Origin: an uncultured Candidatus Saccharibacteria bacterium
GTDB lineage: Bacteria; Patescibacteriota; Minisyncoccia; UBA9983
NCBI GenBank assembly: GCA_964372755.1
Contig: CAYJQX010000004.1
Coordinates: forward strand, 10,766 to 74,765
Direction: 5' to 3'
Length of the DNA stretch: 64,000 bases
Shown: positions 4,011 through 51,852 of the stretch, in pieces
Position numbering within the stretch: position 1 is the first letter of the stretch
How the letters are laid out: each line of letters starts with the position of its first letter
Translations under genes and position numbers: made by a program
Notes under the pieces: generated by a model
The model's database searches: none
Told to the model about the DNA's origin: nothing
Seen by the model: only the letters and a program-made list of their open reading frames with translations

Positions 4011-4081
4011 GGGGGTTTAGTTAAGTGGTACCCGCCCGACTGAATGATCTCTAAGGCTTTAGTCGTTCGGGCGGGTAACGG
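4011..4081 (+). other. tRNA-like 5' fragment (pseudo-tRNA-Trp leader) interrupted by a GC-rich hairpin. It is not a foldable tRNA.
   Basis: gggggtttagttaagtggta (4011-4030) resembles the 5' acceptor/D region of the downstream tRNA-Trp (gggggtgtaggcttaacggtaa). An 8-bp stem cccgcccg/cgggcggg (4031-4038 and 4068-4075) follows. Then taacgg resumes the D-loop. No 3' acceptor partner exists. A TATAAT lies at 3988-3993. Confidence 0.4.
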
Positions 4082-4128: not shown

Positions 4129-4203
4129 GGGGGTGTAGGCTTAACGGTAAACTGCCTCTCTCCAAAAGAGGATTTTCAGGTTCGAGTCCTGGCACCCCCG
4201 CCA
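4129..4203 (+). tRNA. tRNA-Trp (anticodon CCA), with the 3' CCA encoded
   Basis: The acceptor gggggtg/caccccc is 7 bp. The anticodon stem is cctct/agagg with loop ctCCAaa. The T-arm is tcagg-ttcgagt-cctgg. The sequence ends in a discriminator g plus CCA. Confidence 0.8.
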
Positions 4204-4766: not shown

Positions 4767-5726
4767 TTAGGAAATCCTAGGGGTTTTTATTTTTTCAAAG
4801 ATTTTCTCCACCTCCGTTTTATTTTGCGGATTAATCCACCAGATGTTCTTATTTCTCTTAAACCATGTCATTTGCCTTTTGGCGTAGGCAAAAATTTCTT
4901 TTTCCAAAAGGGCGGTCATTTCTTTCTTTGTTATTTTCTTTTGAAGGTATCTGGCGACATATCGGCACTCAAGTCCTAATTCCTCGCATCTTTTCCAAGT
5001 AATTTTTCTTGATAATCGCAGATTTTTTATCTCATCAATCATCCCCGTTTTTATCCGATGAAGAAGCCTTACATGAATTTTTTTCTTAAGAGTTTCTATC
5101 TCCGGTTTTAATCCGATAAATAAAACATTTTTCTTGCTTGAGGGATTTTTTGGAAGAGAAGGGGACTCCCCGATAGCTTTGGCGATTTCAATGGCTCTTA
5201 TAAGTCTTCTCGGGTTGTTCTCATCTATATTTTTTGCCCTTCTTGGATCTATTCTCTGAAGTTCTTTGAAAAGTTCTTGAGAAGATTTCTTTGTTAGGTT
5301 TTTTCGAAGTGTCCAGTTTGGTGGAACATTTGGAATAAAAGTTTTCCCCAAGATAGCGTCAAGATAAAGCCCTGTGCCGCCACAGACAATGGGTATATTG
5401 CCTCTTGAGGTGATTTCATTTAGCGCTTTTTCTCCATCTTTTTGAAAATCAGAGACAGAATATATTTTTTTCGGGGCCACAAAATCTATCAAGTGGTGGC
5501 GGACCCCTTTGTATAAAAATTGTTTTTTTTGAGAGTGGTTAGACCATTTCCCCTCTATTTTTCCACTAGTCAAATTCAAACCCTTGTATACTTGTCTTGA
5601 ATCAGCGGAAATTATTTCGCCTTTTTTCCCGAAAGGGAGACTTTTGGCGATTTTTATCGCCAGTTCGCTCTTGCCTGACGCTGTAGGGCCTAAAATAACG
5701 ATTATTTTGGTTTTTAGCACAACCAA
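4767..5726 (-). CDS. miaA: tRNA dimethylallyltransferase MiaA
   Basis: The P-loop IVILGPTASGKSELAIKIAK is present and MiaA-like architecture is found throughout. The track start is a TTG; a GTG two codons downstream is also possible. Confidence 0.9.
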   Translation of the reverse strand: MVVLKTKIIVILGPTASGKSELAIKIAKSLPFGKKGEIISADSRQVYKGLNLTSGKIEGKWSNHSQKKQFLYKGVRHHLIDFVAPKKIYSVSDFQKDGEKALNEITSRGNIPIVCGGTGLYLDAILGKTFIPNVPPNWTLRKNLTKKSSQELFKELQRIDPRRAKNIDENNPRRLIRAIEIAKAIGESPSLPKNPSSKKNVLFIGLKPEIETLKKKIHVRLLHRIKTGMIDEIKNLRLSRKITWKRCEELGLECRYVARYLQKKITKKEMTALLEKEIFAYAKRQMTWFKRNKNIWWINPQNKTEVEKIFEKIKTPRIS

Positions 5727-8550: not shown

Positions 8551-8565
8551 TTTTGCCGGAGGTGG
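8551..8565. repeat. 15-nt direct repeat of the tRNA-Leu 3' end plus flank (ttttgccggaggtgg). It recurs at 8732-8746, where it overlaps the tRNA 3' end.
   Basis: The identical 15-mer occurs twice about 180 bp apart. In tRNA sense it spans the acceptor 3' strand, the discriminator and aaaa. Such arrangements are typical of att-site duplications at tRNA 3' ends. Confidence 0.45.
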
Positions 8566-8669
8566 TGGAAAATGACTTGGTCACAAGTTCCGCTTTCGTT
8601 GGCCACTCAAGCGGACTCGCGACCCCAGCTCGCCATTTTGTCCTGCTGGACAAAATATGGCTGCGCTTT

Positions 8670-8734
8670 TCAAGTCCCACGCGTTTCGCAAGTAGTTGCG
8701 AAACTCTCCGTCAAAAACTTACTTCGTTCTTTTT
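8670..8734 (-). repeat. Conserved tRNA 3' trailer module (hairpin gtttcgcaag-tag-ttgcgaaac plus an inverted partial T-arm copy ttcaagtcccac). It is shared with the tRNA-Glu locus.
   Basis: In tRNA orientation, about 30 nt after the 3' end comes the hairpin gtttcgcaactacttgcgaaac. Next is gtgggacttgaa, the reverse complement of the tRNA's own T-loop/stem. The trailer aligns with 51283-51348. Confidence 0.5.
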
Positions 8735-17987: not shown

Positions 17988-18791
17988 TTATTTTCTAATT
18001 TCTGCCACCACAGCCATATGATCGCTTACCCCGTCTTTAATCCCCACATTTTCCACGATATATTTCGAAGTGGAGAAAAGAACATCAACCACGTATTGTA
18101 AATCTCCGGCACGATGGAGGTTTTTATCTATAGTTGTGGTAATTTCTGGGGGAATATTGTCTTTATAATTTGAAGCTAAAAGGTTGAAGATCTCTCGTCC
18201 GCGCGGAGCGTTCATGTCTCCGCACAAAATAATTTCTGGATATTTCTTGAGACAGTGAAGTAATGTAGCAATATCTCTCCTTTGCCAATCATCTATGTGA
18301 CCCTCGTGGGTCCAAGTGAAATGAGTGTTGGCTACAGAGAATTTTTTGCCGTTTTTTTCTATCACGCAAACAAGGAGCATCCTGTTGTAGGAACCAGGAT
18401 CTTCTTTGTTGAAATCAGGGACAAATTTTTCTGTGCCGTTGTAATAATGCACCTCATCTGAAAAAGGATACTTGGAAATGGTGGCAATGCCAGAGACTAC
18501 TTTTTGGGTGTATCCTCCAAAACTAGGCAAAACTCTGGTCATTGGAACATATTTTCCTCGCATTTCCATTTCTGACAAAAACAAAGGGAAATCTTCCTCC
18601 AGGATTTCTTGCAAGCAAACCACGTCCGGACCCTCTCTTTTTAAAAATTTCAATACGCGATCTATGTGTCGGTGTTTTTCAATGTTTACGGAAATAAGTT
18701 TGAGTGGCGGGTTGGTTAACACAAGAATTTGATTATAACGAACATCTCTGTTTGTTTCATCGATTATAACGAATATCTCTGTTTTCCTCAA
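17988..18791 (-). CDS. Endonuclease/exonuclease/phosphatase (EEP, DNase I-like) family protein
   Basis: The EEP fold is indicated by VVCLQEI...GDMNA...SDH-type motifs across 267 aa. Confidence 0.75.
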   Translation of the reverse strand: MRKTEIFVIIDETNRDVRYNQILVLTNPPLKLISVNIEKHRHIDRVLKFLKREGPDVVCLQEILEEDFPLFLSEMEMRGKYVPMTRVLPSFGGYTQKVVSGIATISKYPFSDEVHYYNGTEKFVPDFNKEDPGSYNRMLLVCVIEKNGKKFSVANTHFTWTHEGHIDDWQRRDIATLLHCLKKYPEIILCGDMNAPRGREIFNLLASNYKDNIPPEITTTIDKNLHRAGDLQYVVDVLFSTSKYIVENVGIKDGVSDHMAVVAEIRK

Positions 18792-18811: not shown

Positions 18812-18851
18812 CCAGTGAGTAATTCTGACATATGTCAGAATTACTCACTGG
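18812..18851. promoter_or_regulatory. Perfect 40-bp palindrome (20-bp arms, no spacer) about 20 bp upstream of the EEP gene start. It is a candidate operator.
   Basis: ccagtgagtaattctgacat is followed by its exact reverse complement atgtcagaattactcactgg. Confidence 0.4.
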
Positions 18852-18998: not shown

Positions 18999-19034
18999 TG
19001 GGGGATCGCCTGCCTGCGCAGGCAGGTCCAATGG
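18999..19034 (+). other. Pseudo-tRNA-Gln 5' leader: a copy of tRNA-Gln nt 1-10 plus an 18-nt GC palindrome plus the D-loop continuation
   Basis: tgggggatcg is identical to the first 10 nt of the tRNA-Gln 23 nt downstream. The palindrome cctgcctgc/gcaggcagg follows. Then tccaatgg matches the tRNA's tctaatgg. Confidence 0.4.
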
Positions 19035-19056: not shown

Positions 19057-19127
19057 TGGGGGATCGTCTAATGGTAGGACAGAGGCCTTTGAAGCCTTTA
19101 ATCGGGGTCCGAATCCCTGTCCCCCAG
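19057..19127 (+). tRNA. tRNA-Gln (anticodon TTG)
   Basis: The acceptor is tggggga/tccccca. The D-arm is gtct-aatggta-ggac. The anticodon stem is gaggc/gcctt with loop ctTTGaa. The T-arm is cgggg-tccgaat-ccctg and the discriminator is g. Confidence 0.85.
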
Positions 19128-49186: not shown

Positions 49187-51181
49187 ATGTATAAAAAATT
49201 GATTGTTGCTGGTTTTTTGATAGCGGGATTCGCCTTTTTTTCTACTGCAAATGCGCAGGCTCTTACAACGGCGCAAATCGATGCGATAATTAGCCTTCTG
49301 CGTTCTTTTGGGGCTGAAGAAAACGTGATTGCCAATGTTGAAAATAATCTTTATGGCCGTTCCTCGGGTTCGGGCGGTTCTGACTATCCAAATTATTGTC
49401 CGCAACTGAATTACAACTTGTATCTTGATTTAGTGGATGAAGGAACGGAAGGAGAAGTATCAAAACTTCAAAAATTTCTTGCCCAATACAGTAATATTTA
49501 CCCAGAAGGAAATATTACTGGCTTCTTTGGCCCATCTACAGAACGAGCTGTGCAGAGATGGCAAGCGCAAAACGGAGTAGTGTCTTCTGGTTCTCCGGAG
49601 ACTACCGGATATGGCGTGGTTGGACCTAAGACAAGAGAAGCGATTAATAAATTGTGCGGAAAAGTTACAAATCCCAATCCTATACCTGTTACAGAAAGTC
49701 CTTATATAACCTCTACCGGGGCTAAAGCCGCTGGTAATTTTGAGATGGATGCAGGGGGTGAGCTTTGGATTTATGGAACAAATTTAGTGGGAAAAAATTC
49801 TGTTTTGCCTAAAGTATTTATTGGAAACACTGAGTCCGTTGTGAAATCTGCAAGCAAAGAATCTTTAACCGTAAGCGTGCCTGTTTCATTAACCTCTGGT
49901 TTGACCTACAATGTTTATATTTCAAATGAAAACGGGGTAAGTAATACGGTGTATGTGAAAGTTTTAGGCAAATCAGGTTCTCCACCCCCAGTTACTTCGG
50001 CGTATCCGTCAATTACAGTGATTTATCCTAACGGAGGAGAAATTCTTACGTTCACGAAGGATAAAGATCTGGGTCTGGATTTTATGGCAAAATGGAAATA
50101 TGTAGATCTTGTGGGTAATGTGACAGCTTATCTGAAATTTACGGATGGTTTGACATGTAAAATAAAAACAGTGCCTGTTTCCGAAAACTATATGACTGCT
50201 AGTTTGGGAGAAAATTACAAATGCCCGAATGCAAACAGGAATGTGACCCCGGGTCAATACAAAGTTCTTTTAGAGCCAGATAACGGGGATTCCTCAAAGC
50301 CAAACAAGTATAGTGATGAAAGCGATAATTATTTTGTTGTTAATCATCCTACGCAACAGCAAACACAGGCAACCTTCCGTGTGTCTTCCGACCCAAGAAT
50401 GGTTTTTAGTGATACCGCTTATGCCGGACAGGAGAAGGTGATGCTTGGACGTTACAATCTAACTGCGGAGAGTAAAGACATAAAAATTACTTCCTTTAAA
50501 GCTCTAAGTTCAGCCTCGGTTTTAAAGATGTTCAAAAATATCATTCTTTTTAACTCGGAAGGTAATGTTGTTATAGGTCATGGAAATATTACGAATGTCA
50601 ACGCCACAGGAACACCGTCGCAATCACAGGTAGATTTTAATATTTCTTTTATCGTGCCTGCGGGGACCACAAAAAATGTGTTTTTCTTGGGCGATTTAAG
50701 TGAAAATGCTCCTTCGGAGACATTAAATTTCAATTTCTTTAATCTGGGACTTTCGGATAAGAACGCAAAGATTGAATACTCAAATGCGCGTTCTCTTACT
50801 CTCAAAGTTGAACCCAAAACATGTCTGACTGATAGCGCTCAATTTGTAAGCCAGGACAGTATTCCTACGAGTATTACTGCCGGCAAAGAATTTACGGTGA
50901 CATTAAAAATGAAAAATACCGGATGTTCAACGTGGGTAAAAGACAACAACAACCCATTTTCTCTGGGAGTACGCCCTGTTGATAATTATACTTGGAGACT
51001 TGGAAGAATAAGCGCTATGGAAAAAGAGGTAAAACCGGGTGAAATTGGCACTTTCACCGCCACCCTTGCCGCCCCTAAAATCGCGGGTACATATCAGTTT
51101 CAATGGCAAATGGTAAAAGAATATTTCCGCTGGTTTGGCGAGCTCACAAAATCTGTGATGGTTACGGTGACGAATCCTTAA
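49187..51181 (+). CDS. Secreted or anchored large protein with an N-terminal peptidoglycan-binding (PG_binding_1-like) domain and beta-rich repeats
   Basis: A signal/TM is present at MYKKLIVAGFLIAGFAFFSTANA. LQKFLAQYSNIYPEGNITGFFGPSTERAVQRWQAQNGV matches the PG-binding consensus (LQ..L...DG.FG..T..AV..FQ...GL). The rest is Ser/Thr/Asn-rich and predicted beta. Confidence 0.65.
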   Translation: MYKKLIVAGFLIAGFAFFSTANAQALTTAQIDAIISLLRSFGAEENVIANVENNLYGRSSGSGGSDYPNYCPQLNYNLYLDLVDEGTEGEVSKLQKFLAQYSNIYPEGNITGFFGPSTERAVQRWQAQNGVVSSGSPETTGYGVVGPKTREAINKLCGKVTNPNPIPVTESPYITSTGAKAAGNFEMDAGGELWIYGTNLVGKNSVLPKVFIGNTESVVKSASKESLTVSVPVSLTSGLTYNVYISNENGVSNTVYVKVLGKSGSPPPVTSAYPSITVIYPNGGEILTFTKDKDLGLDFMAKWKYVDLVGNVTAYLKFTDGLTCKIKTVPVSENYMTASLGENYKCPNANRNVTPGQYKVLLEPDNGDSSKPNKYSDESDNYFVVNHPTQQQTQATFRVSSDPRMVFSDTAYAGQEKVMLGRYNLTAESKDIKITSFKALSSASVLKMFKNIILFNSEGNVVIGHGNITNVNATGTPSQSQVDFNISFIVPAGTTKNVFFLGDLSENAPSETLNFNFFNLGLSDKNAKIEYSNARSLTLKVEPKTCLTDSAQFVSQDSIPTSITAGKEFTVTLKMKNTGCSTWVKDNNNPFSLGVRPVDNYTWRLGRISAMEKEVKPGEIGTFTATLAAPKIAGTYQFQWQMVKEYFRWFGELTKSVMVTVTNP

Positions 51182-51282: not shown

Positions 51283-51348
51283 TATTCGATTCCCCGACGT
51301 CTCGCAAGCAGTTGCGAGACTTGTGTTCAAATACTCGCAGACTCGTTT
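51283..51348 (-). repeat. Conserved tRNA 3' trailer module at the tRNA-Glu locus (hairpin gtctcgcaag-cag-ttgcgagac plus an inverted partial T-arm copy)
   Basis: In tRNA orientation, about 30 nt after the 3' end comes the hairpin gtctcgcaactgcttgcgagac. Next is gtcggggaatcgaataccc, an imperfect reverse complement of the tRNA T-arm. It aligns with the tRNA-Leu trailer (8670-8734). Confidence 0.5.
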
Positions 51349-51420
51349 TGACCCCACGGGGAATCGAACCCCGATTACCGCCTTGAGAAGGCGATGTCCT
51401 AACCGTTAGACGATAGGGCC
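51349..51420 (-). tRNA. tRNA-Glu (anticodon CTC)
   Basis: The reverse complement ggccctatcgtctaacggttaggacatcgccttctcaaggcggtaatcggggttcgattccccgtggggtca closely resembles E. coli tRNA-Glu. The anticodon loop is ttCTCaa and the T-arm is cgggg-ttcgatt-ccccg. Confidence 0.8.
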
Positions 51421-51476
51421 AATATTTTGTTTTTAAAATACTTTTTTCCAAAATCGTTCTTGAAATATTTTTCACG

Positions 51477-51525
51477 ACCGTTACCCGCCCGCGCGTACTC
51501 GGAAGCAGGCGGGGACGATAGGGCC
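51477..51525 (-). other. Pseudo-tRNA-Glu 5' leader: a copy of tRNA-Glu nt 1-12 plus a GC-rich hairpin plus the D-loop continuation
   Basis: On the minus strand, ggccctatcgtc is identical to the tRNA 5' end. The hairpin cccgcctgc...gcgggcggg follows. Then taacggt matches the tRNA D-loop. It lies 56 nt upstream of the tRNA. Confidence 0.4.
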
Positions 51526-51852
51526 AATGATTCATTAATCTGCTCAAAATGAGCATAGCAAAATAAACCCCTCCGCTCAATAATTAAGAGCCTCCCATAA
51601 AACAAAATAACTCCGCGTTCCTTATGTTTTAAAAAGGAAAACTAGGGGTTTGACTTATTCTCTGCTATTGCAGATAATCTAGGGTAGAGATGGATTTTAT
51701 AGGTTTACTGGTGGCGGTTGTTAGGAGGAAATACCCCCGTTTCCTTTTGTTCCTTATTTTATCATCAGTTGTATATTGTTTGCTTTTGGCGACGCCAGCT
51801 GATGACCTGCCGATTTAATAAGGAGTCTTTTTGAACTTCCGCCACCTTTTCT

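Follow-up and report, generated by a model that had tools for sequence, protein, structure and literature searches.

The short module that lies upstream of tRNA-Glu in the window (the whole 64-kb stretch of DNA that was analysed here) is very probably an internally deleted remnant of a small selfish GIY-YIG element that colonises tRNA genes. This reading is based on a coding remnant of a GIY-YIG nuclease gene between the module and the tRNA, on intact elements that have the same layout, on the recurrence of this layout at six of six nuclease homologues, on the hairpins of the window, which are variants of a palindrome that the intact elements carry, and on an empty site in the closest relative.

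The module upstream of tRNA-Glu

The module, the spacer that follows it and the intact tRNA-Glu(CUC) are all read on the minus strand (Table 1). The original prediction described a pseudo-tRNA 5' piece, a GC hairpin and a D-loop piece followed by the real tRNA, with identity over nt 1-12 of tRNA-Glu and a distance of 56 nt to the gene, and all of this is found in the sequence (51525-51477 and 51420-51349). The arms of the hairpin, CCCGCCTGC and GCGGGCGGG, form a 9-bp stem with one T.G pair around a 12-nt loop, and the hairpin is the sole exact match of CCCGCC-N18-GGCGGG in the window. The 12-mer with which the tRNA begins is present in two copies in the 64 kb, where 0.1 are expected, and none of the shuffled sequences contained two. 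The identical module is found in a second, independent assembly of this strain (L155, Logan ERR4904391), which stops inside the tRNA, so the module is not an assembly artefact. The intact tRNA-Glu(CUC) has no encoded CCA and contains a U6.G67 wobble pair.

At this locus ARAGORN and Rfam call only the tRNA at 51349-51420 and do not call the module as a tRNA; across the whole window, Rfam at gathering thresholds finds five tRNAs and nothing else. The hairpin does not qualify as an intrinsic terminator, since TAACGGTCGTGAAAAA comes next and the terminator scan made no call. Nor does the module resemble a group I intron, as there is no Rfam intron match and the insert is in the D-arm of a truncated copy with no 3' exon after it. 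The DNA fold energy of the hairpin and its flanks (-11.3 kcal/mol, z = -0.83) is unexceptional for the base composition, and the significance of the hairpin thus rests on homology and context and not on thermodynamics.

Two promoter-like sequences flank the module. The one upstream of the pseudo copy (TTGAGC-17-TATGCT, 51580-51552) falls below the threshold in a sigma-70 consensus scan and is probably the ancestral tRNA-Glu promoter. The other, TTCAAG-18-TATTTT between the module and the tRNA, was proposed earlier as a plausible promoter; it is present as sequence, but it fails a simple sigma-70 consensus scan. It sits inside the coding remnant of the GIY-YIG gene and could at most be a weak internal promoter in the spacer.

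Table 1. Position of the modules and related features in the window
Feature	Position	Strand	Remark
Trp module: diverged tRNA-Trp 5' piece, 45-nt hairpin, TAACGG	4011..4081	+	fold energy z = -3.77
Candidate 3'-type remnant behind tRNA-Leu(CAA)	8554..8734	-	layout parallels L072, L128, L150
Gln module: TGGGGGATCG, palindrome CCTGCCTGCGCAGGCAGG, TCCAATGG	18999..19034	+	real tRNA-Gln starts at 19057
tRNA-Glu(CUC), intact, begins GGCCCTATCGTCTAACGGT	51349..51420	-	ARAGORN; Rfam tRNA 59.2 bits
Spacer, 56 nt, AT-rich	51476-51421	-	between module and real tRNA
GIY-YIG nuclease gene remnant, last 18 codons (REKYFKNDFGKKYFKNKI)	51423..51476	-	profile match
Copy of tRNA-Glu nt 13-19, TAACGGT (D-loop)	51477..51483	-	
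Hairpin CCCGCCTGCTTCCGAGTACGCGCGGGCGGG, between tRNA nt 12 and 13	51484..51513	.	minus-strand reading 51513-51484
Pseudo copy of tRNA-Glu nt 1-12, GGCCCTATCGTC	51514..51525	-	identical to real gene
Promoter-like TTGAGC-17-TATGCT, upstream of pseudo copy	51552..51580	-	L001 flank aligns best here

The nuclease remnant in the spacer

The translated remnant REKYFKNDFGKKYFKNKI matches RKREKYLKSGIGKEFLKSLK and the stop that follows it, the C-terminus of stand-alone GIY-YIG nucleases of about 78 aa, and it ends 2 nt before +1 of tRNA-Glu. The frame of the spacer reads N G R E K Y F K N D F G K K Y F K N K I, and the C-terminus of the family reads ..A R K R E K Y L K S G I G K E F L K S L K and then the stop, which in the 5' type of element (described below) is 2-7 nt before the tRNA +1. 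The best six-frame match of the GIY-YIG family profile in the 64-kb window is at 51402-51641 on the minus strand and spans the module. The spacer alone gives 12.3 bits, a score that was reached by none of 4000 dinucleotide shuffles (maximum 8.7). The remnant has a length of just 18 residues, which is a point against reading it as the relic of an element. A six-frame profile search of the 64-kb window found no intact GIY-YIG ORF. Unlike its full-length relatives, the window copy does not encode a GIY-YIG nuclease, and because it retains only the 18 C-terminal codons it is a relic and not a functional homing-type element. The profile search found no GIY-YIG remnants in the Trp spacer, the Gln spacer or the other ORF-less spacers, so that the origin of those modules is deduced from layout and hairpin only.

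Filled and empty sites in close relatives

The contig closest to the window (L001) has an RmuC that is 92% identical and keeps the order MurF, tRNA-Glu(CTC), RmuC; the window genes near the module include MurF, RmuC, L21 and RecR, and these proteins, together with the RmuC homologues, assign the window to Patescibacteria/Parcubacteria. The tRNA-Glu(CTC) of this relative (5483-5554) has no module, and TTGAGT-17-TATGCT is found directly upstream of it. A global MAFFT alignment of the window with L001 put the gap arbitrarily in AT-rich sequence and was replaced by local alignment with a random-window control. In this alignment the flank of L001 reaches a score of 28 upstream of the pseudo copy as opposed to 14 on the spacer, and 2 of 3000 random window segments score at least that high. 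Because the flank aligns upstream of the pseudo copy, the window has about 105 extra nt relative to L001, made up of the hairpin, nt 13-19, the spacer and nt 1-12, within what was formerly a single tRNA gene. The window is the filled site and L001 the empty one, and the difference can be either an insertion in the window or a loss in L001 by recombination of direct repeats of 12-19 nt. It had been suggested that the module travels with the tRNA; this does not hold in so simple a form, as presence and absence differ between close relatives at the same tRNA.

The acceptor stem of the module-bearing tRNA-Glu has U6.G67 where the L001 ortholog has C6-G67. This is compatible with a 5' end that was imported with the element, and it could be a simple mutation. 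An ORF of 664 aa with an N-terminal hydrophobic segment (49187-51181, plus strand) lies between MurF and tRNA-Glu in the window and is absent from L001, and its absence is a second indel beside tRNA-Glu. On a related Parcubacteria contig (L002, 3019-5655) there is a DnaB helicase gene with an intein that has a LAGLIDADG endonuclease domain.

Sister modules in the window

The module at tRNA-Glu was described as a third instance, and both sister modules, at tRNA-Trp and tRNA-Gln, are real. The arms of the Trp hairpin are CCCGCCCGA and TCGGGCGGG, the real tRNA-Trp starts at 4129, and the Trp pseudo copy retains an anticodon-loop-like TCTCCGAA. The palindrome of the Gln module, CCTGCCTGCGCAGGCAGG, is exact and identical to that of a tRNA-Glu module on another contig (L007). 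The 5' module is found at three of the five tRNAs of the window, with tRNA-Tyr and tRNA-Leu being without it. Together with its occurrence at many tRNAs elsewhere, this bears out the statement that the module recurs at tRNA genes and does not follow the chromosome strand. Between 150 and 300 nt upstream of the Gln module we also see a perfect 40-bp palindrome (CCAGTGAGTAATTCTGACAT/ATGTCAGAATTACTCACTGG, 18812-18851) and a direct repeat, GATTATAACGAAYATCTCTGTTT, in two copies at about 18730-18790.

Behind tRNA-Leu(CAA) there is an insert of 169 nt with two hairpins, followed by a decayed T-arm and a copy of the last 12 nt of the tRNA (8554-8565). This copy is exact, and the 12-mer occurs twice in the window as against 0 expected. 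A GIY-YIG profile search found no ORF remnant in the insert. The region is probably what remains of a 3'-type element of this kind. A 22-nt hairpin, GTYTCGCAACTRCTTGCGARAC, is present downstream of both tRNA-Glu (51299-51320) and tRNA-Leu (8680-8701). Its two copies differ by one compensatory C-G/T-A change, the T-arm of the respective tRNA comes after each of them in inverted form (CGGGGAATCGAAtaCCCG; GTGGGACTTGAA), and the Glu copy scores as terminator-like on the plus strand.

The same layout at tRNA-Glu in metagenomes

Metagenome contigs were searched for the pattern tRNA-Glu nt 1-12, 10-40 nt, TAACGG, 25-55 nt, tRNA-Glu nt 1-18, which was matched by eight contigs. In seven of them the tRNA-Glu pseudo copy is split exactly between nt 12 and nt 13 by a perfect GC palindrome, either CCTGCCTGCCGGCAGGCAGG, CCTGCCTGCGCAGGCAGG, CCTGCCCGGGCAGG or CCTCGGCC..GGGCGAGG, with five distinct hairpin sequences among the modules. 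The pseudo copies reach nt 19-27 and are followed by an AT-rich spacer of 22-50 nt. On the eighth (L012) there is no hairpin, and the upstream copy of tRNA-Glu is decayed and nearly full-length. In one metagenome an identical 68-nt ORF-less module is found at both tRNA-Glu(TTC) and tRNA-Glu(CTC) (L005, 13900-13997; L010, 6145-6242). In these two modules a C/T variant at position 6 is swapped between the pseudo and the real copies, as expected after reciprocal recombination between them.

Intact elements and their proteins

Elements of the 5' type consist of a partial tRNA copy with a palindrome (PAL, see below) in its D-arm, an ORF or a short spacer, and the intact tRNA. The partial copy extends to about nt 25-45, or to about nt 25-40 where the element is intact, and the ORF has about 240 nt. 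Such an ORF is found in Chitinophagales (L110, tRNA-Leu), Omnitrophota (L118, tRNA-Arg), Roizmanbacteria (L124, tRNA-Leu) and WWE3 (L046, tRNA-Lys), and a short spacer is found in loci L013, L029, L040, L125 and L128. The 3' type is the mirror image, with the tRNA, the ORF and a partial 3' copy that has PAL in its T-loop, as seen in Algoriphagus (L072), L128 and L150. Intact elements with a layout like that of the window are L110, L118, L124, L046, L128 and L072, and intact copies span Bacteroidota, Omnitrophota and Patescibacteria. In L128 a CCA still ends the pseudo 3' copy and the working tRNA runs directly into the ATG, which suggests that the pseudo piece is the original tRNA end and that the working end arrived with the element.

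The element ORFs encode proteins of about 78 aa that contain the GIY-YIG catalytic domain only (PF01541, E 1e-14 to 1e-17). The closest solved structures are the UPF0213 proteins 1zg2 (E 8.5e-9) and 1ywl (1.1e-8), followed by SLX1, 6seh (2.5e-4); judged by these closest matches, the element nucleases would belong to a UPF0213/SLX1-like branch. A search with a family profile built from the six ORFs gave at least 7,811 protein clusters at 90% identity, almost all of 77-90 aa and annotated as no more than 'putative endonuclease' or 'GIY-YIG nuclease family protein'. From the homologues we picked six solely for their long contigs, with the palindrome playing no part in the choice. All six adjoin tRNA-Leu, with a partial tRNA copy that bears PAL or a PAL variant; four are of the 5' type, one is of the 3' type and one is nested or complex.

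The insertion recurs at a defined target: the junction or hairpin is in the D-arm (nt 9-24) or in the T-loop, and it is always beside a tRNA gene. Junctions are found in the D- or T-loops of tRNA-Leu, Glu, Gln, Trp, Val, Lys, Arg and Met. A decay intermediate is seen in Saccharibacteria (L071), where a pseudo tRNA-Gln of nt 1-45 and a degenerate GIY-YIG ORF precede the real tRNA. With it the decay series runs from the intact element through the degenerate ORF, the 18-codon remnant and the bare hairpin module to the clean tRNA. A scan of viral contigs gave one marginal locus, at a contig edge, and carriage by phages is thus not supported.

The palindrome PAL

PAL is the palindrome CCTGCCTGC..GCAGGCAGG, which was scanned as CCTGCCTGC-N0-6-GCAGGCAGGT in one genome per species. 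The scan gave at least 120 loci in many phyla, and among the matches listed 14 of 131 PAL sites are within 400 nt of a tRNA. In tRNA orientation these loci share the layout described above. In the elements PAL sits in the D-loop (5' type) or in the T-loop (3' type) of the partial tRNA copy. Compared with PAL, the Glu hairpin of the window has one compensated pair, C-G in place of T-A, as well as one T.G pair, and the arms of the Trp hairpin differ by three compensated pairs. Since the differences are mostly compensated pairs, all three hairpins of the window are PAL variants, and the stem is under some constraint. Hairpins of the PAL type occur in the window only three times, always within the pseudo-tRNA pieces. 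With these three copies, and with no structure of terminal inverted repeats or target-site duplications, they do not belong to the REP or MITE class.

Solo copies (CCTGCCTGC-N0-6-GCAGGCAGG) number more than 100 and are found in Bacteroidota, Patescibacteria, Planctomycetota, Omnitrophota, Proteobacteria and others, for the most part at a distance from tRNAs and from GIY-YIG genes. On a cursory inspection they often read A-PAL-T, 54 of the 131 sites are in long stop-free frames, and most solo sites have no extended palindrome. From this abundance it follows that the hairpin may be a separate entity which merely associates with GIY-YIG elements. When PAL is removed, ARAGORN finds a callable tRNA at one of the 131 sites (L040), and PAL loci are thus not tRNAs with a D-loop intron. 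The identical palindrome of 18-20 bp is kept across phyla. In some loci a single decayed tRNA copy contains several nested PAL-type hairpins, with its D-loop and its T-loop both occupied (L154, 1-1437; L156, 240-380), which suggests repeated hits on the same pseudo-tRNA.

Other explanations for the module

One option is that the module is a decayed tandem duplicate of tRNA-Glu with an unrelated palindrome in its D-loop, either mobile or generated by slippage, and with no nuclease element involved. The nearly full-length upstream copy without a hairpin in L012 is of this kind, solo PAL copies exist in many contexts, and the Trp pseudo copy is diverged and keeps its anticodon-loop-like part. Yet the spacer matches the C-terminus of a GIY-YIG nuclease and not the rest of tRNA-Glu, and the pseudo copies stop at nt 19-45, which is where the nuclease gene starts in intact elements. 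The stop of the nuclease gene abuts the tRNA +1 in a fixed junction, and the layout is found at all six of the GIY-YIG homologues, so we regard such a duplicate as unlikely. The spacer is also unlike the sequence upstream of the pseudo copy, so the module is not a simple tandem duplication; a tandem duplication of the upstream flank was dropped on the basis of the empty site of L001 and the nuclease genes. A guide RNA or leader mimic, a split or permuted tRNA and a hairpin end of the IS200/IS605 type were dropped for the same two reasons. The module could instead be a functional pre-tRNA leader, an RNA selected to regulate the maturation of tRNA-Glu as a decoy or competitor for the acceptor 3' strand, as a modulator of RNase P or as a stabiliser. 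The promoter-like sequence upstream of the pseudo copy fits such a leader, since the module is then probably transcribed as one; so do the compensatory changes in the hairpin arms, the T.G pair of the Glu hairpin, which would be tolerated in RNA, and the recurrence of the layout at three tRNAs of the window and in many genomes. This recurrence, however, is explained by the same layout with an intact nuclease gene and needs no RNA function. The module is missing at the orthologous tRNA of the closest relative, its spacer is what is left of a protein-coding sequence, the geometry is variable, with hairpins at nt 9-24 and pseudo copies that end anywhere within nt 19-45, and no Rfam family matches. 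We consider a leader function to be quite improbable.

Integration classically takes place at tRNA genes and leaves part of the tRNA in duplicate. For this reason, and in view of the 664-aa ORF beside the tRNA that L001 lacks, one might see in the module the scar of an integrase-type island or prophage attachment site at tRNA-Glu. But the duplicated part is the 5' end and is separated from the gene by just 56 nt, the repeat is broken up by the hairpin, and there is no integrase or recombinase ORF and no island between the repeats or nearby. The architecture is common to elements that bear a nuclease and not to those that bear an integrase, which makes a scar of this kind highly improbable. Finally, one might attribute the module to chance or to faulty assembly, given the unexceptional fold energy of the Glu hairpin and its flanks. 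The two copies of the 12-mer against 0.1 expected, the identical sequence in the independent assembly L155 and the presence of the layout in seven further contigs from several independent metagenomes leave next to no room for this.

A possible mechanism of spread and decay

If the module is a deleted GIY-YIG element, the deletion in the window would have removed nt 20-40 of the pseudo-tRNA together with nuclease codons 1 to about 57, leaving nt 1-12, the hairpin, nt 13-19 and the last 18 codons. An insertion of this type would be tolerated because the duplicated tRNA end keeps the tRNA working. In the intact element, the nuclease may cut the DNA of a tRNA gene at the D- or T-arm, and repair from a copy that bears the element would then spread it, as in homing. 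Given that the proteins have no DNA-binding domain, that they resemble the SLX1-like branch and that junctions are found in many tRNAs, recognition based on structure is our preferred guess. The target could be extruded hairpins or a cruciform of the tRNA gene, or PAL itself. A point against this scheme is that the presumed target is still present in the intact tRNA copy, so that the scheme does not account for the immunity of element-bearing alleles.

The tight junction between the stop and the tRNA, together with the position of the promoter-like sequence, suggests expression by read-through with separation by RNase P. The tRNA promoter would then drive the nuclease gene, and RNase P (5' type) or 3' processing (3' type) would separate it from the tRNA. 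Regarding the hairpin, one explanation is that it marks the outer junction of the element. Another is that it keeps what is left of the pseudo-tRNA from folding, or from pairing or recombining with the working copy, and both may apply; it might also stabilise the message. The relic in the window is now most likely functionless beyond lengthening the pre-tRNA leader, and it could be lost cleanly via recombination of its 12-19-nt direct repeats.

Comparison with known systems

tRNA-targeting integrative elements also leave a partial direct duplication of the tRNA beside the intact gene. Unlike them, the elements described here have no integrase, their repeats are tens to about 300 nt apart and not kilobases, duplications of both the 5' and the 3' end occur, and a hairpin is found in the D- or T-loop. 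REP/RAYT sequences, Rickettsia palindromic elements and MITEs are short GC-rich palindromes that are repeated in a genome, sometimes inside genes, and PAL resembles them in its many solo copies. It differs from them in having no terminal inverted repeats or fixed target duplications, in keeping the same arms across phyla, and in its associated protein, which is a GIY-YIG nuclease and not a RAYT or DDE transposase.

The organellar mobile ORFs of fungal and algal mitochondria insert into a gene, bring a replacement for its end and leave a pseudo fragment. The tRNA elements are similar in that the duplicate replaces the displaced part, so that the gene stays functional with a truncated pseudo copy alongside. 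The organellar ORFs are found in protein-coding host genes and encode LAGLIDADG or long GIY-YIG enzymes. Here, in contrast, the host is a tRNA gene, the duplicate has only 12-45 nt, there are 5' and 3' versions, and the pseudo copy is interrupted by a palindrome.

The Seg proteins of phage T4 are free-standing GIY-YIG homing endonucleases, one of which, SegB, is encoded in a tRNA gene cluster (PMC2330249). The tRNA elements share with them the GIY-YIG domain, a selfish gene that is located beside or between tRNA genes and not in an intron, a patchy distribution among relatives and presumably also the spread by cutting a naive allele and repair from the carrier. Seg proteins and I-TevI have 200-250 aa with a separate DNA-binding domain, whereas the proteins of the tRNA elements have about 78 aa with the catalytic domain only and are closer to UPF0213/SLX1. 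Unlike T4 Seg, the tRNA elements are found in bacterial chromosomes of several phyla, with one marginal match in a viral contig, and they split the tRNA gene, duplicate its end and carry a conserved palindrome.

Stand-alone bacterial GIY-YIG proteins were placed in a 'Slx1 non-Eukaryota' group (PMC1564403). The element proteins are like the UPF0213/YhbQ-like group and the structure-specific nuclease SLX1 (1zg2, 1ywl, 6seh) in their best structure matches, in size and in their single-domain build. In the literature searched we found neither a mobile-element role nor a tRNA linkage for the UPF0213/YhbQ-like group. A search that included the palindrome string, with most subscription journals outside its scope, likewise turned up no account of this element family, in which a minimal GIY-YIG gene, accompanied by a conserved palindrome, sits within a bacterial tRNA gene.

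Significance of the findings

Based on these data we tentatively propose, with a little less than even confidence, a large mobile family that crosses phyla. Its minimal GIY-YIG nucleases would invade the D- or T-loops of tRNA genes, possibly by recognising the structure of the DNA and not its sequence, supply new tRNA ends, be expressed from the tRNA promoter, be released by tRNA processing and bear PAL, which is kept from Bacteroidota to Patescibacteria. Its ORF-less derivatives would litter the tRNA genes of reduced genomes, as at three of five in the window, where they would exchange tRNA segments from one lineage to another and seed rearrangements.

The odd tRNA-like fragments and GC hairpins that are seen beside the tRNAs of Patescibacteria (the candidate phyla radiation) can be read as decay products of mobile elements and not as new RNAs or regulators. 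Their direct repeats, and the identical modules at different tRNAs, can drive deletions, rearrangements and the replacement of tRNA ends, and the elements break assemblies at tRNAs, as in L155. Some carriers are cultured Bacteroidota (Algoriphagus taiwanensis, Christiangramia antarctica and Ekhidna lutea), which makes the question of how a nuclease without a DNA-binding domain finds a tRNA gene approachable. The findings also give tiny, unannotated GIY-YIG proteins, whose family is very large with at least 7,811 clusters, a likely role as selfish elements directed at tRNA genes. If the reading as a mobile family is true, thousands of annotations as 'GIY-YIG nuclease family protein' would gain a function.
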